Of a stretch of 6,368 bases of DNA, positions 973-6,368 are shown one piece after another. How positions within the stretch are numbered: the first letter of the stretch is position 1; each line of letters begins with the position of its first letter. A program made the translations under genes and the position numbers. The DNA comes from an uncultured archaeon (GTDB taxonomy: Archaea > Iainarchaeota > Iainarchaeia > Iainarchaeales > JAAZKV01), in contig CAZKBG010000004.1 of assembly GCA_964551375.1 (NCBI GenBank), positions 1 to 6,368 on the forward strand, read 5' to 3'. A model generated the notes under the pieces. That model searched no databases, had not been told where the DNA came from, and was given only the letters and a program-made list of their open reading frames with translations.

Positions 973-1491
973 ATGATTGAAAGGACATTAGTTTTGATAA
1001 AGCCTGACGGAGTTCAAAGGGGACTAACTGGCAAAATAATCAAAAGATTTGAAAACGTCGGAATGAAAATAGTCGGAATGAGAATGGTTTGGATTGACGA
1101 AGAATTTGCTTCAAAACATTATGCTGATGTAAGGAACAGAAAAGGAGAAACAGTGTTTAAGGCGCTGTTAAAATTAATCACAATGGGGCCGGTTGTTGCA
1201 ATGGTGCTTGAAGGAATTGACGCTGTAGAAGTTGTAAGAAAGATGTGCGGGCCGACAGAGCCAAAATCCGCCCAGCCTGGGACAATCAGGGGCGATTATG
1301 CGCATGTAAGCTACGCATATTCAGACATTGTGGGCGAAGCGGTTAGAAATGTAATACACGCGTCAGGCTCAAAAGAAGAGGCAAAAGTTGAAGTTGGCAT
1401 GTGGTTCGCTGAAAACGAGATACATGATTATGATTCAGTTCACGATTTGCACATACTTCATAGAAAAGTCGAGCCGAAAAGAAAAAAGTGA
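973..1491 (+). CDS. ndk: Nucleoside diphosphate kinase
   Basis: ORF 949-1491. MIERTLVLIKPDGVQRGL..., GPVVAMVLEG, VVRKMCGPT, GTIRGDY and RNVIHASGS...WF are the canonical NDK blocks, with the catalytic His and the Lys/Tyr/Arg/Thr/Arg/Asn positions intact. ATG 973 is preferred because NDKs start about 2-3 residues before the RT.V.IKPDG strand and because of the TATA position. GTG 949 remains possible. Confidence 0.93.
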   Translation: MIERTLVLIKPDGVQRGLTGKIIKRFENVGMKIVGMRMVWIDEEFASKHYADVRNRKGETVFKALLKLITMGPVVAMVLEGIDAVEVVRKMCGPTEPKSAQPGTIRGDYAHVSYAYSDIVGEAVRNVIHASGSKEEAKVEVGMWFAENEIHDYDSVHDLHILHRKVEPKRKK

Positions 1492-1502
1492 GTTTATTTT
1501 TT

Positions 1503-1510
1503 AGAGGTGA
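1503..1510 (+). promoter_or_regulatory. Shine-Dalgarno AGAGGTGA serving the TTG start at 1515
   Basis: It matches the GGAGGTGA-type SD seen before rpl7ae, with a 4-nt spacer to TTG 1515. An in-frame TAA (1512-1514) excludes any upstream start. Confidence 0.55.
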
Positions 1511-1514
1511 ATAA

Positions 1515-1988
1515 TTGAGGTCGCTCATAATAGCAAGACCAGCTGCGCTAAATCTTGGACAGCTCTGGAAAATTATCCGCGAAATAGAGGATAATAAACT
1601 CAAGATTATAGGGCTAAAAGAAGCGCGGCTTGACATTCACTTTCTATCAAGCAGAGCCAAGGAAGAAAAATATGCGGCAAGGGCTGATAAATTCGCCGAA
1701 GGCGAAAAAGTCCCGTGCGTATTAATTGCAGTTGAAGGGGAAAAAGCAGAAGACATTGCAAAAGAAATCCAGGACAAATATTCCGGACTAGTGCATATTT
1801 CCTTAAATTCAGAAATTGCAAAATATGAAATACAAAGATTTTTTACAGCAGAAGAGATTTTTAGTTTTGATGTAGTTGAAAACGAGGTATTCTGGGGAAA
1901 AGAGAGCAGACAGTGGAAAAAAATTGTGAATATGAGCGTTAATGAAGTTGCAGAGGAAAGAAAAAAAGATTTGAAAGTTAAAAATTGA
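1515..1988 (+). CDS. Divergent NDK-like protein (Kpn loop deleted, catalytic residues partly lost) with a unique C-terminal tail; function unknown
   Basis: 157 aa with a TTG start. There is no in-frame ATG, GTG or TTG for the next ~130 codons, and an in-frame stop lies immediately upstream. Hand alignment to the neighbouring NDK gave three collinear blocks with 13/43, 5/21 and 9/26 identities (details in findings). The homology is my own alignment and is not confirmed by a profile search. Confidence 0.6.
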   Translation: MRSLIIARPAALNLGQLWKIIREIEDNKLKIIGLKEARLDIHFLSSRAKEEKYAARADKFAEGEKVPCVLIAVEGEKAEDIAKEIQDKYSGLVHISLNSEIAKYEIQRFFTAEEIFSFDVVENEVFWGKESRQWKKIVNMSVNEVAEERKKDLKVKN

Positions 1989-2032: not shown

Positions 2033-3793
2033 GTGAATGTTATGATAAGACAGCCAATAATTACGGTTTTAGGGCACGTTGATCACGGCAAGACATCGCT
2101 TCTTGATGCCATTAGAAACTCAAGAGTTGCGGCAAAAGAACCAGGTGCAATAACACAGCACATAGGAGCAACCGAAGTTCCAATTGATGTAATACAAACA
2201 GTTGCAGGCCCGCTAATTAAGAAATTTGGATTTACTCTCTCAATTCCGGGACTGCTTTTTATTGATACACCGGGACATGAGGCATTTACAAACCTTAGAA
2301 AAAGAGGAGGAAGCATTGCGGATCTTGCAATACTCGTAATTGACGCCATGCAGGGAATACAACCACAAACCGTTGAAGCAATTGAAATTTTGCGAGCATA
2401 TAAAGTTCCTTTTGTAATAGCAATGACAAAAATTGACATGCTTAATTTTTACTCTTCAAACGAAGGAAGCTTTTTAGAAAATCACAATAATCAAAATGAA
2501 AGAACAAAACAATTATTTGACGAAAAGCTTTACACGTTAGTCGGAAAGCTATACGAACACGGATTTGAAGGGGAAAGATTTGACAGATGCGCATTTGGAA
2601 AACAAATACCAATCGTTCCAGTATCAGCGAAAACAAAAGAAGGGCTTCCTGAATTATTAACTTTACTTGCAGGACTTTCACAAAAGTTTTTGGAAAAGAA
2701 ACTTGAAATCAGCGCTGAAGAAAGCGCAAAAGCGGCAGTGCTTGAGTCAAAAGAAGAAAAAGGGTTGGGAAAAACAATTGATGTAATACTTTATCAGGGG
2801 ACACTAAAAGTAAATGATGAAATTGCAATGCTTGGAAAAAAAGGAGTAATAACAACAAAAATAAGGGCGTTACTTCAGCCAAAACCGCTTCAAGAAATGA
2901 GAATGACAAAAGAAAAATTCAGCTCAGTAAAAAGCGTTTCAGCGGCATGCGGAGTAAAAATCTCGGCTCCTGGACTTGATGATGTTTTAGCAGGCTCGGT
3001 TTTAACACAAGTAAAAACTGGAAAAGAAATAGACGAACTAAAAATGGATATGAAAGATTTTAATTATGCTTCAGAAAATAAAGGACTCATTGTAAAAGCT
3101 GACGCAATCGGCTCGCTTGAAGCAATGATAAACCTTTTGAAAAAAGAAGGTTATGTTCTTAGAAAAGCAGAGATTGGGAATATTACAAGAAAGGATGTAA
3201 TTGAAGCATATTCCCTCTTTTGCGAAGACCCCTATCTTGGAGTAATTTTAGGATTTAATGTTGCAATAGACGCTGATGCGGCTGATGAAGCTGCTAAAAA
3301 AGGGGTAAAAATATTCAGCGAAAAAGTAATTTATCACTTGATTGAAGGATACAAGAACTGGATGGAAGAAGCAAAAAAAGCCCAGAAAGCAAACGAGCTT
3401 ATGTCGCTTGTATGCCCTGTTGAAATTGAAGTAATTCGGGGAAAAGTTTTTAGAAATACAAAACCCGCAATTGTCGGAGTAAGAGTAAACGAAGGAAGGC
3501 TCCGCAATGGGTGGAGACTGATGAATAAAGAAGGCAAATTAATAGGCAAAGTGGAAGGAATGCAAAACGAAGGAAAAGCATTAACTGAAGCCAAAAAAGG
3601 CGAAGAAGTGGCAGTTTCAATTGACGGCGCAAATGTGGGCAGAAACCTATTTGAAGGGGACTTGCTTTACGCATGCATTCCGCTAAAACACTACGCAGGG
3701 CTTGAAAAATACGCATGTGAATTTACTACAGGCGAAAAGGAACTCTTAACCGAGATTAAGTCAAAGCAAAATGAGGAAATAAGCGACGAGTAA
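2033..3793 (+). CDS. infB: Translation initiation factor aIF5B (IF2/eIF5B family GTPase)
   Basis: 586 aa. RQPIITVLGHVDHGKTSLLDAIR (G1), ITQHIGAT, FIDTPGHEAF (G3), a G4 motif that reads TKID, VSAKTKEGLPELL (G5), and C-terminal domains collinear with archaeal aIF5B. The start is GTG 2033 or ATG 2042 (MIRQPII...). No intein-like insertion is present. Confidence 0.95.
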   Translation: MNVMIRQPIITVLGHVDHGKTSLLDAIRNSRVAAKEPGAITQHIGATEVPIDVIQTVAGPLIKKFGFTLSIPGLLFIDTPGHEAFTNLRKRGGSIADLAILVIDAMQGIQPQTVEAIEILRAYKVPFVIAMTKIDMLNFYSSNEGSFLENHNNQNERTKQLFDEKLYTLVGKLYEHGFEGERFDRCAFGKQIPIVPVSAKTKEGLPELLTLLAGLSQKFLEKKLEISAEESAKAAVLESKEEKGLGKTIDVILYQGTLKVNDEIAMLGKKGVITTKIRALLQPKPLQEMRMTKEKFSSVKSVSAACGVKISAPGLDDVLAGSVLTQVKTGKEIDELKMDMKDFNYASENKGLIVKADAIGSLEAMINLLKKEGYVLRKAEIGNITRKDVIEAYSLFCEDPYLGVILGFNVAIDADAADEAAKKGVKIFSEKVIYHLIEGYKNWMEEAKKAQKANELMSLVCPVEIEVIRGKVFRNTKPAIVGVRVNEGRLRNGWRLMNKEGKLIGKVEGMQNEGKALTEAKKGEEVAVSIDGANVGRNLFEGDLLYACIPLKHYAGLEKYACEFTTGEKELLTEIKSKQNEEISDE

Positions 3794-3846: not shown

Positions 3847-3863
3847 CTCAAATGAGGGGATTA

Positions 3864-4340
3864 ATGATGAAAGTAGTAATAAGCGACCAAAAAACAGGAA
3901 AAGCATACATGGCTAACTCTGACAAGGAGCTATTTGTAGGCAAAAAAATAGGAGAACAAATAAAGCTTGACGAAGTAGGTTTAGCTGGATTTGAAGCAAA
4001 GATAACCGGGGGAAGCGATAAACAAGGATTCCCAATGAGTTCATCAATGCCAGGATCAGCAAGAAAAAAAATCTTTACTTCTGACGCTCCAGGATTCAAC
4101 GCTTCAAGAAAAGGAGAAAGAAAAAGAATCTCAATGAGAGGCGGAACAGTATCTAATGACACTGCTCAATTAAATGTTATTGTAACAAAAGCAGGCTCGG
4201 CAAATTTGGCTGAAGTATTGGGAAAGAAAGAAGTAACTCCTGAAGAAACAATGAGCGCAAAAGAAAGAATGATTAAGAAAAGTCTTGAAACAGCAGGCTC
4301 AGCAGAGCTTGGAAGCGGAGTAAAGAAACCAAAACACTAA
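3864..4340 (+). CDS. rps6e: 30S ribosomal protein S6e
   Basis: ORF 3852-4340. MKVVISDQKTGKAY..., ITGGSDKQGFPM and ...RKGERKR.S.RG are typical of S6e. The start is probably ATG 3864 or 3867, since archaeal S6e begins close to the KVV.SD strand and an SD-like TGAGGGGAT lies at 3853-3861. ATG 3852 is less likely. Confidence 0.92.
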   Translation: MMKVVISDQKTGKAYMANSDKELFVGKKIGEQIKLDEVGLAGFEAKITGGSDKQGFPMSSSMPGSARKKIFTSDAPGFNASRKGERKRISMRGGTVSNDTAQLNVIVTKAGSANLAEVLGKKEVTPEETMSAKERMIKKSLETAGSAELGSGVKKPKH

Positions 4341-4377
4341 CTAAAATGCAGTGAAACGCATTTGATTTAGTGAAGGA

Positions 4378-5820
4378 ATGAGACGAGCGGATTTGATGAA
4401 GAAAATAAAAGAAGCAAGAGAAATAGTTGAAGCAAAGACTGCTAAAAAAGTCCACTCTGAAGGAGAAGTTAAGGAAAAAAAACCAAGAGCAAAAAAAACG
4501 GCGGAACACAGTGTCGCAGTTTCGCCCCCTCAAGAAGAGAAAAAAGAAAAAACTCCTAAAGAAGAAACTCATTCCCACGCTCATGCTCCAAAAGCAAAAA
4601 AAGGCGCTCATGAGAAAGAAGCAAAAGAAGTTCTTCAATCCGAAATAAATATCGGAATGATTGGACACGTTGATCATGGCAAAACATCATTAACAAAAGC
4701 GCTAACAGGCAAATGGTGCGATACACACAGCGAAGAAATGAAAAGAGGAATCTCAATTCGTCTCGGGTACGCTGATGTAGTATTCTACAAATTAAAAACC
4801 GACAACGGAACTGTTTACTCAAACAAGCCTGAATATAACGGCAAACCTGCTGAAGTTGTTTCAAAAAGAAATGTGAGCTTTGTTGATGCTCCAGGTCACG
4901 AAACACTAATGACAACAATGCTTTCAGGGGCTGCTTTAATGAACGGAGCAGTGCTTGTAATTGCGGCAAACGAACCATGCCCTCAGCCAAGAACTGTTGA
5001 ACACTTAATGGCGCTAAAATTTGCAGGAGTGGAAAAAGTTGTTGTTGCGCAAAACAAAGTTGATTTGATTACAAAAGAGCAGGCAATAATAAACCATAAA
5101 GCAATACGCAACTTCCTAGACAGCTACGGCTATAAAGACGCTCCAATAATTCCAACAGCAGCAAACTTCGGGGCAAATATTGATTCTTTAATTGAAGCAA
5201 TTGAAACGCACATTCCCACTCCAAACTTTGACACTTCAAAGCCGCTAAAAATGTTTATTGCAAGAAGCTTTGACATAAACAAACCCGGAACAAAAATAAA
5301 AGACTTAAAAGGCGCAATAATGGGCGGAAGCATTTCCCAAGGAACAATAAATGTAGGCGATGAACTTGAACTTGCCCCAGGACTTGAAGGGCCGACAAGA
5401 ACAAAAGTAATAAGCATTTCAACCGACCACGGATTAATGAGCCAAGCTCATCCCGGCGGATTAATTGCTGTAGGAACAGACCTCGACCCAAGCATGGGAC
5501 AAAATGACAGACTAAGAGGACAGATTGTTGGAAAAGTCGGGACACTTCCTAAGCCAGTAAAAGAACTAAACCTAAAAGTAAATATGTTTGAAAGAATGCT
5601 TGAACAAAACAGCAAAGAAAAAACAGTAATAAAAGCAACTGATCCGCTTGTAATAACAATAGGGACAAACACAGCAGTTGGATTTGTGATAAAAGCAGAT
5701 TCAAAATCATGCCTTTTAAATTTGAAAAATGAAGTAATCGCCGAAAAGAATGAAAAAGTGGCTATCAGCAAAAACATTGCAGGGCAGTGGAGATTAATTG
5801 CATTTGGAGAAGTGCAGTAA
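4378..5820 (+). CDS. eif2g: Translation initiation factor aIF2 gamma subunit, with an N-terminal Lys/Glu-rich extension of about 80 aa
   Basis: 480 aa. The protein is collinear with archaeal aIF2-gamma from residue ~88 onward: EINIGMIGHVDHGKTSLTKALTG (G1), HSEEMKRGISIRLGYA, FVDAPGHE (G3), ANEPCPQPRTVEHL, QNKVDL (G4), ARSFDINKPGT, GGSI.QG, and IAGQWRLIAFG at the C-terminus. The only in-frame starts upstream of G1 are ATG 4378, TTG 4393 and ATG 4396. Confidence 0.93.
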   Translation: MRRADLMKKIKEAREIVEAKTAKKVHSEGEVKEKKPRAKKTAEHSVAVSPPQEEKKEKTPKEETHSHAHAPKAKKGAHEKEAKEVLQSEINIGMIGHVDHGKTSLTKALTGKWCDTHSEEMKRGISIRLGYADVVFYKLKTDNGTVYSNKPEYNGKPAEVVSKRNVSFVDAPGHETLMTTMLSGAALMNGAVLVIAANEPCPQPRTVEHLMALKFAGVEKVVVAQNKVDLITKEQAIINHKAIRNFLDSYGYKDAPIIPTAANFGANIDSLIEAIETHIPTPNFDTSKPLKMFIARSFDINKPGTKIKDLKGAIMGGSISQGTINVGDELELAPGLEGPTRTKVISISTDHGLMSQAHPGGLIAVGTDLDPSMGQNDRLRGQIVGKVGTLPKPVKELNLKVNMFERMLEQNSKEKTVIKATDPLVITIGTNTAVGFVIKADSKSCLLNLKNEVIAEKNEKVAISKNIAGQWRLIAFGEVQ

Positions 5821-5860
5821 GGTTAATTTTTAGCAAAGTTATAAAATTAGGCGCGATAAA

Positions 5861-6250
5861 ATGGCTGAAAAAGTCAAAGTAATGCTTGATACTAATTTTC
5901 TGCTCACGATGGTGAGGCACAAAATCCACGGATTTGACGAAATAAAGCAAAAACTCCCTTGTGAATTTTATATTCTAAGCAGAGTACTGTTTGAACTTGC
6001 GGGCTTAGGAAAAAGCGATAAAAAAGTGAAAAAAGAAGTCGCAATAGTTGAACAGCTTTTGAAGAACAACAATGTTAAAGTAATAGAAAGCAAACTTGAA
6101 AGCGTGGACACTGAACTAGTAGGACTCGCAGGCGAATACATTGTGGCAACCAACGATAAAGAGCTGCGAAGAAGGGTAAAAATCGCCGGCGGAAAGACAA
6201 TATTTATCAGAAGCCTAACTTACGTTGACGTGGAAGACCTTGTTGAATAA
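5861..6250 (+). CDS. PIN-domain endoribonuclease of the Fcf1/Utp24-like archaeal family (conserved neighbour of aIF2-gamma)
   Basis: 129 aa. VMLDTNFLL (first acidic residue), LFELAG, and IVATNDKELRRRVK, which resembles the Fcf1 CVAT.D..L+RR motif. Its position directly after aIF2-gamma matches the conserved archaeal arrangement. The start is ATG 5861, with ATG 5882 as an alternative. Confidence 0.8.
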   Translation: MAEKVKVMLDTNFLLTMVRHKIHGFDEIKQKLPCEFYILSRVLFELAGLGKSDKKVKKEVAIVEQLLKNNNVKVIESKLESVDTELVGLAGEYIVATNDKELRRRVKIAGGKTIFIRSLTYVDVEDLVE

Positions 6251-6268
6251 AATTGGCAGAATCTGGGA

Positions 6269-6307
6269 TTTTTAGCAGTTTAAGCAAGTTTAGGGCAACT
6301 AAATTTT
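6269..6307. terminator. Possible terminator region after the PIN gene (T5 run plus a weak AT-rich hairpin)
   Basis: TTTTT lies at 6269-6273, 19 nt after the stop. AGTTTAG (6287-6293) can pair with CTAAATT (6299-6305) as 7 bp including one G-U, with the loop GGCAA, followed by TT. The evidence is weak because the region is AT-rich. Confidence 0.25.
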
Positions 6308-6368
6308 AGACCAAAAGGCATGGTTTTTAAACATGGCGTTTAGATAATTTAATAATCCGCTCCTTAGC

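Follow-up and report, generated by a model that had tools for sequence, protein, structure and literature searches.

A Conserved Nucleoside Diphosphate Kinase Homologue without a Kpn Loop in the L7ae Cluster of Iainarchaeota

We analyzed a 6,368-nucleotide (nt) stretch of DNA from an uncultured archaeon of the Iainarchaeota, referred to here as the window (G+C content, 38%), whose gene order is that of the archaeal L7ae cluster published as L7ae-S28e-L24e-ndk-infB-S6e-eIF2g-Utp24 (PMC10833476), with one addition. The added gene is an open reading frame (ORF) at positions 1515..1988 on the forward strand, between ndk, which encodes nucleoside diphosphate kinase (NDK), and infB, which encodes aIF5B. 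It runs from a TTG start to a TGA stop and specifies a 157-amino-acid (aa) protein with homology to NDK and no Kpn loop, called the paralogue or pseudo-NDK below. An earlier reading of the sequence (the first-pass annotation) had reported this ORF, with its length and TTG start, as an insertion into an otherwise canonical archaeal cluster, and both descriptions hold. Our preferred reading is that the paralogue is a conserved, translated but catalytically dead NDK that derives from a second NDK type (type B, introduced below) and works as a non-enzymatic, dimer-forming protein; for this statement as a whole we estimate a probability of about 60%.

All genes of the window are on the forward strand. 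Pfam matches identify L7Ae (64-435), S28e (451-663), and L24e (678-905) upstream of ndk and, downstream of the paralogue, aIF5B as the next gene (infB, 2033..3793; GTP_EFTU, IF-2, and GTP_EFTU_D4 domains), followed by S6e (3852-4340), aIF2-gamma (4378-5820), and a PIN_9/Utp24-like protein (5861-6250). The ndk gene (973..1491; PF00334, E = 1.3e-46) is catalytically intact and belongs to what we call type A; its product has a long Kpn-loop insertion and the His-rich tail SVHDLHILHRK. Its mechanical ORF opens at GTG 949, but the real start is most likely ATG 973 (MIERTLVL..., 172 aa), because all orthologues open with MIE(R/K/Q)TL. The ndk stop codon (1489-1491) is separated by 23 nt from the TTG of the paralogue, and a Shine-Dalgarno (SD)-like motif, AGAGGTGA (1503..1510), can be read directly 4 nt before that TTG.

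Fold and active site of the 157-aa product

Homology between the ORF and NDK is detectable at several levels. The three-block alignment with the neighbouring NDK given by the first-pass annotation was reproduced exactly, with identities of 13/43, 5/21, and 9/26 and with 33 NDK residues between blocks 2 and 3 standing opposite QDKY of the ORF; the block 1 identity was reached in 0 of 20,000 shuffles. BLASTP aligns the two proteins at E = 3e-8 and 23% identity, with a large gap that corresponds to the Kpn loop. Comparison of the 157-aa product with the PF00334 profile, a check that had been proposed at the outset, returned a match at E = 1e-5, though its 25.9 bits fall below the gathering score of 27; the NCBIfam NDK model matches at E = 5.5e-6. 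All 16 family members sampled matched PF00334 (best E, 1.2e-11), and precomputed PF00334 matches are present on some relatives and absent from P0004.

Structural comparison points the same way. An AlphaFold2 model built on a 16-sequence alignment of the paralogue family has a mean predicted local distance difference test (pLDDT) score of 87.6 and a predicted template modeling score of 0.73, with pLDDT of at least 89 for each 10-residue block of residues 1 to 110. Its secondary structure elements, assigned by DSSP, run in NDK order (beta1-alpha0-alpha1-beta2-alphaA-alpha2-beta3-alpha3-beta4-alpha4) through a core of aa 1-115 (1515..1859). Among the Foldseek matches listed against the PDB, 50/50 were NDKs (E about 1e-7, probability 1.00), with full-length template modeling scores of 0.5 to 0.57 and target-based scores as high as 0.74. 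The family profile matches the Pyrococcus horikoshii NDK (2cwk) at E = 3.4e-21; the match consists of two collinear segments and leaves out residues 95-109 of that NDK. Against the PDB the profile recovers 113 distinct sequences at E up to 1, with NDK or NME proteins making up 60/60 of the matches listed. Profile searches, predicted structure, and structure comparison therefore agree with the first-pass annotation in describing a degenerate NDK homologue without a Kpn loop.

The core contains Arg8 (at the position of Lys12 in human numbering), Pro9, and the beta2 dimer strand KIIGLK (aa 30-35). In place of the Kpn loop, alignment gaps locate the junction QDKYSGL (aa 86-92; 1770..1790), where type-B NDK has 19 residues more than the ORF and the neighbouring type-A NDK about 29 more. 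The superfamily alignment then equates His94-Ile95-Ser96 (1794..1802) with the NDK catalytic His118-Gly/Ala-Ser120. Beyond the core lies a helical, K/E-rich C-terminal tail (aa 116-157; 1860..1985), which is modeled as three helices with pLDDT of 70 to 81 and comprises 42 aa rather than the roughly 50 first estimated.

We scored active-site residues across the superfamily, with 27 paralogues aligned to 32 true NDKs, using human numbering and the residue roles given in PMC7554756. Type-A sequences have the full set in 19/19 cases. Thr94 and Arg105 of the Kpn loop, present in 32/32 true NDKs, are deleted in 27/27 paralogues, and Asp14, Tyr52, and the aromatic residue at Phe60 are each found in 0/27 (the window protein has Ala10 at the Asp14 position and neither the Tyr nor the aromatic residue). 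Arg88 is Arg in 1 paralogue and Lys in 15 of the 27 (window, Lys83), and Asn115 is kept in 5/27 (window, Gly91). Other positions are better preserved: Lys12 is Lys in 19, Arg in 3, Thr in 4, and Ser in 1 (window, Arg8); His118 is His in 23, Tyr in 2, and Phe in 2 (window, His94); Ser120 is kept in 26/27 (window, Ser96) and Glu129 in 27/27 (window, Glu105). The substitutions listed by the first-pass annotation (Lys of IKPDG to Arg8, the following Asp-Gly to Ala-Ala, and the Asn before the catalytic His to Gly91, with the His itself retained as His94) are all correct. Tyr104 and Arg108 were considered as paralogue innovations and rejected, since both already occur in type-B NDKs.

In NDK the alphaA-alpha2 hairpin and the Kpn loop clamp the nucleotide; in the paralogues variable K/E-rich sequence stands in for the hairpin and no loop remains, so a loss of kinase function is strongly inferred, and the paralogue probably lacks nucleoside diphosphate (NDP) kinase activity. 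Homology to an enzyme family, loss of catalytic residues, and the purifying selection described below make pseudoenzyme the best reading of these sequences, and of the options that the first-pass annotation had offered it fits the active-site table best.

An alternative is that the paralogue remains chemically active through His94, either as a phosphohistidine acceptor or carrier charged by NDK or by a nucleoside triphosphate or as a phosphohistidine phosphatase-like protein, using the His-Ser-Glu cluster together with Lys/Arg8. The retention of these residues (with Lys or Arg at the Lys12 position in 22/27) speaks for it, as does the expectation, drawn from NDK structure (PMC7554756), that removal of the Kpn loop would expose the His; NDKs are also known as protein histidine kinases (PMC7461546). 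We nevertheless consider it unlikely. The His is replaced by Tyr or Phe in 4/27 otherwise intact members, and in two of these lineages (L010 and L042) the gene neighbourhood is the usual one; Asp14, by which the His is held accessible, is missing from 27/27. Moreover, His, Ser, and Glu also serve NDK structure and folding, and their retention need not mean catalysis. The His-phosphocarrier option of the first-pass annotation is thus weakened: the conservation of the His on which it drew is real in most members, but its replacement in the others counts against it.

Distribution, translation, and selection

The paralogue recurs in related genomes with an intact frame. A word-indexed search of 5.8 billion proteins returned five close clusters (47 to 100% identical, all 157 to 161 aa and without indels), an exhaustive phmmer search of 1.84 billion representatives added members down to about 30% identity, and a profile search retrieved about 30 paralogue clusters before scores fell to those of ordinary NDKs with a Kpn loop. 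The named members come from metagenome-assembled genomes (MAGs) assigned to "Candidatus Diapherotrites" or "Candidatus Iainarchaeum," and the paralogue is a small family in the Iainarchaeota (Diapherotrites), within the DPANN archaea; a pattern-limited genome scan with a narrowed alignment places it in at least 7 species. Several Kpn-less members are publicly labelled "nucleoside-diphosphate kinase" (P0036 / NMA44568.1 / UniRef100_A0A7K4BZA8; HNV01545.1; and the JGI entries P0012, P0016, and P0024). Because active-site residues are missing, this label is probably a misannotation, and such mislabelled members would inflate metabolic reconstructions.

We recovered gene contexts for 48 loci and classified them with hidden Markov models. 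A search of relatives for an ORF between ndk and infB, combined with a selection test, had been suggested by the first-pass annotation; it found the order L24e-ndkA-paralogue-infB in about 22 distinct loci, with dN/dS (the ratio of nonsynonymous to synonymous substitution rates) of 0.07 to 0.3. The gap after ndk ranges from -4 to +67 nt, and infB lies downstream of the paralogue at each locus that reaches that far. In most of 12 orthologous loci an SD-like GAGGTGA, AAGGCGA, or GAGGCGA precedes the start by 5 to 8 nt, and 8 of the 12 use TTG (window 1515; L004:6001, L006:952, L009:5001, L013-L015 and L017:4001), in keeping with the earlier judgment that the ORF is translationally credible. The conserved weak TTG start may keep the level of the paralogue below that of NDK.

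The paralogue is under purifying selection. By Nei-Gojobori estimation, in which dS is saturated and values are rough, closer pairs have dN/dS of 0.07 to 0.18 for the paralogue and 0.05 to 0.07 for both ndk and aIF5B; at 45% identity the paralogue value is 0.29. The proportion of nonsynonymous differences (pN) lies well below that of synonymous differences (pS) in the core and also in the tail (pN, 0.17 to 0.29; pS, 0.74 to 0.79). No frameshift or internal stop was found in the paralogue among roughly 25 distinct loci that carry it, and 12 columns are invariant in the 16-sequence family alignment. Two antisense ORFs, of 97 aa (1343-1636, reverse strand) and 71 aa (1606-1821, reverse strand), cross the ndk/paralogue region; they are most likely shadow ORFs, because conservation and low dN/dS reside in the forward-strand frames.

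Selection on the tail also bears on a second alternative, that the paralogue is a translation-linked accessory protein whose K/E-rich hairpin and tail bind aIF5B, aIF2-gamma, the ribosome, or RNA without involvement of the active NDK. Its position just upstream of infB in the L7ae translation cluster, the K/E-rich composition of the alphaA-alpha2 hairpin and the tail, and the purifying selection acting on the tail would all suit such a role. We find it improbable all the same, since gene order alone says little about function, being inherited from the ancestral ndk slot, while whole subgroups (119 to 128 aa) lack the tail, the isoelectric point of the window protein is near neutral (6.8), and a Pfam search found no RNA-binding motif or family match in that protein.

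A third alternative, that the gene is a functionless and slowly decaying relic whose apparent conservation reflects too little elapsed time or the constraints of translational coupling, appears very unlikely. It could draw on the stepwise reduction seen across the family (the Kpn loop is gone in general, some subgroups have no tail, others no His, and L047/L048 no copy of the gene at all) and on a paralogue dN that is 2 to 4 times that of the neighbouring ndk. Against it stand dN/dS values well below 1 (with dS saturated), a frame that stays intact across 25 to 45% identity, the invariant columns, and the conserved SD motif. DPANN genomes are streamlined, and dead genes would be expected to vanish from them quickly.

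Origin and history of the locus

The paralogue does not stem from the adjacent ndk; its closest relative is a different enzyme. At five metagenome loci (L037-L041) the sole ndk between L24e and infB belongs to a distinct type, type B, which is also represented by the database proteins P0041 and P0042; its Kpn loop is short but complete, and no catalytic residue is missing. Type-B NDKs score 98 to 122 bits against the paralogue profile and 122 to 130 bits against the neighbour-type profile; on the paralogue profile, type-A NDKs reach 37 to 58 bits and the P. horikoshii NDK 79 bits. BLASTP of the window paralogue against type B returned E = 1e-22 in an alignment of 177 columns that is 28% identical, has a single loop gap of 19 residues, and extends to residue 155, taking in the tail; P0011 matches type B at E = 7e-25, again with the tail aligned. 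All 27 paralogues are nearer to type B (25 to 37% identity) than to type A (21 to 28%).

Particular sequence features also link the two. Type B and the paralogue have in common the motif ..E(V/I)AKYEIxRFFxxEE.F.Y.. and a K/E-rich C-terminal extension ending in ..GKSVEEIE.A.KK..; Arg132 and Phe133, likewise part of the paralogue signature, occur in type B and in 2/8 other NDKs and in no type-A sequence. Because the tail aligns with the type-B C-terminal extension, it appears to have been inherited from a type-B NDK, and the earlier impression that it resembles nothing recognizable does not stand. All paralogues except that of L019 have the junction (K/E)(F/Y)xxx-(V/I/L)H, and this single pattern suggests that the Kpn loop was lost in one deletion event. 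We built neighbor-joining trees on Kimura distances; in the paralogue tree (132 shared columns, 200 bootstraps) support was 52% for paralogue plus type B, 0% for paralogue plus type A, and 87.5% for monophyly of the paralogues when the L019 copy is excluded, and the mean distance of the paralogue was 1.58 to type B and 2.09 to type A. It is very probable that the paralogue is a selected, type-B-derived NDK homologue that lacks the nucleotide site.

The least likely of the alternatives is the one favored by the first-pass annotation, in which the gene arose by recent tandem duplication of the adjacent ndk and has since degenerated: although the genes are neighbours on the same strand, 23 nt apart, and significantly similar (E = 3e-8), type-A NDKs are among those least similar to the paralogue by profile score, identity is higher to type B in 27/27 paralogues, grouping with type A has 0% bootstrap support, and the tail and the Arg132/Phe133 pair occur in type B but in no type-A sequence.

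The window stands within a series of locus states seen in related lineages. Type B alone is found at L037-L041, and type A followed by the relic at the window and about 21 other distinct loci. In L019/L045 the order is swapped, with a divergent 127-aa copy, which scores 51 bits with the paralogue profile and 17 bits with that of type A, preceding type A; this copy (L019:3565-3948, upstream of ndkA; L019 and L045 are on one contig) has HVP instead of HVS, a longer junction, and no tail, and it may have degenerated independently or been rearranged. L047/L048 carry type A alone: in an otherwise canonical cluster (4001-6337), infB follows 15 nt after the type-A ndk and the paralogue is absent. Because ndkA runs straight into infB there, the pseudo-NDK is dispensable in that lineage or was never present in it. 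In L021 and the P0149 contig, which are from more distant organisms, an A-like ndk is followed by aEF-2.

Distances suggest that type A has moved between lineages. Ribosomal proteins of L021 lie at d = 0.85 to 1.02 from the window group, versus 0.13 to 0.41 within the group, and the L021 NDK (4001-4498) lies at d = 0.29 to 0.51 from the type-A ndk of the group, which is the within-group range; type-A and type-B NDKs are 1.04 to 1.14 apart. The type-A ndk thus looks horizontally exchanged. In a tree of flanking markers, L038, which has type B only, joins L024/L025, which bear the paralogue (88%), and L047 (type A only) groups with L007/L029/L019 (100%). We propose a history in which the resident gene was type B; type A was then gained and would have supplied the enzyme activity; type B would next have lost its Kpn loop, once, along with its nucleotide-holding residues; and loss of the tail, loss of the His, a swap of gene order, or complete loss would have followed in individual lineages. 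This four-step history needs a root on or near the L038 branch, and roots on L038, at the midpoint, and on the L021 outgroup give different polarities. On such a history, the locus would be a natural in situ displacement, with a foreign-looking type-A ndk beside the resident type B, now a loop-less relic, and with relatives still showing all the states, from type B only through type A with the relic, in either order, to type A only.

Several features of the neighbouring genes deserve mention in their own right. Type-A NDKs (window 1408-1491; L001-L034, L021, and L047) have a conserved C-terminal tail, (S/N)V(H/N)D(L/I)HILH(R/H/K)K; co-occurrence of this His-rich tail with the paralogue was considered and rejected, as the L021 NDK has the tail and no paralogue. 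Ahead of its G domain, the aIF2-gamma of the window has roughly 85 additional N-terminal aa rich in K and E (4378-4640), and the products of relatives span 426 to 517 aa, the length of this extension differing among them. At L004:8843-12352 the aIF2-gamma gene contains an intein with a LAGLIDADG homing endonuclease (1169-aa product); the L004 paralogue is 72% identical to that of the window, whose own aIF2-gamma has no intein. In L013, a GTDB MAG, aIF5B appears as two ORFs of 427 aa and 88 aa (4548-6300), a split that could come from a frameshift, from misassembly, or from a masked stretch. Scans of the window with Rfam and for tRNAs gave no match.

Proposed role and comparison with known systems

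Interface sites published for the M. tuberculosis NDK (PMC7554756) were mapped onto our alignment through a sequence of that protein that agrees with the nine numbered residues given there. All 14/14 dimer-interface positions are present in the paralogue and are type-B-like (mean BLOSUM score versus type B, 2.21; other core positions, 1.47). Of the trimer-interface positions, 13/27 are deleted and the remainder are relaxed (BLOSUM, 1.16). We suggest that selection keeps the NDK core and the buried His-Ser-Glu cluster, the head-to-tail dimer surface formed by beta2/alpha1, and the tail in most lineages. The paralogue would then form a homodimer, or a heterodimer with the active type-A NDK, and would lack the Kpn-loop trimer contacts of the hexamer; its role would be a non-catalytic one in protein-protein interaction in the context of ndk, aIF5B, and aIF2-gamma, and the ancestral type-B NDK may already have held that role.

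As a mechanism, a dimer-forming adaptor is tentative. A more specific version is doubtful, namely, that the paralogue is a non-catalytic partner of the active NDK, bound through the conserved beta2 dimer surface, whose exposed His/Ser/Glu face or type-B tail would tether or gate local GTP regeneration or a phosphohistidine relay for the initiation GTPases aIF5B and aIF2-gamma encoded nearby; if true, it would represent a prokaryotic coupling of NDK to a GTPase made from a displaced enzyme.

Some observations weigh against our preferred reading of a type-B-derived, non-enzymatic dimer-forming protein. Beta2 doubles as a core strand, which confounds the conservation of the dimer interface, and the kept His, Ser, and Glu, with Lys or Arg at the Lys12 position, leave some chemistry possible. 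Several subgroups are without the tail, L047/L048 are without the paralogue altogether, and the L019 copy is both more divergent and swapped in order. The order of events hangs on the root, given the grouping of L038 with L024/L025, and the L021 outgroup joins the long-branch group, possibly as an artefact.

NDK is among the most uniform of housekeeping enzymes, and dead NDK domains are known from eukaryotes. We found no paper on both Diapherotrites and NDK in the literature searched, nor any description there of this archaeal family or of a stand-alone prokaryotic dead NDK. That a streamlined DPANN lineage keeps a pseudo-NDK in a core translation-factor operon hints at a non-enzymatic job for the NDK fold, which could be dissected here in a very simple system.

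Canonical NDK (PF00334, EC 2.7.4.6; P. horikoshii 2cwk) has the same fold and topology as the paralogue and shares with it the beta4 His, Ser120, Glu129, Pro13, the beta2 dimer strand, and a place in the ndk slot region of the archaeal L7ae cluster; the paralogue differs in lacking the Kpn loop, Asp14, Tyr52, Phe60, Arg88, and mostly Asn115, along with the deleted trimer positions. Type-B NDK (L037-L041; P0041, P0042) is its closest relative, at E = 1e-22 to 7e-25 and in the same L24e-infB slot, and is an undescribed type in its own right. Type B is the sole ndk of its locus, whereas the paralogue always stands alongside a type-A ndk. Mimivirus NDK, whose structures 2b8p and 3b6b are among the matches to the family profile, has a naturally shortened Kpn loop and is a hexameric, active kinase with altered nucleotide specificity (PMC7554756). 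Unlike that enzyme, which is active with a short loop, the paralogue lacks the entire loop and its phosphate-binding residues. The C-terminal domain of human RP2 (XRP2) likewise has an NDK-like fold that lacks catalytic residues, and it serves as an interaction module.

Eukaryotes have group II NME proteins whose inactive NDK domains have been kept for interaction roles, and domain B of NME7 is required to bind the gamma-tubulin ring complex (PMC13256974). Group II proteins are eukaryotic and usually multidomain and keep the Kpn-loop region, whereas the paralogue is a stand-alone prokaryotic protein from which the loop has been excised, and there is no sign of common descent between them beyond the NDK superfamily. 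With an NDK fold and no NDP kinase activity, NME5, NME7 domain B, NME8, and NME9 would be the nearest functional analogues of the paralogue.

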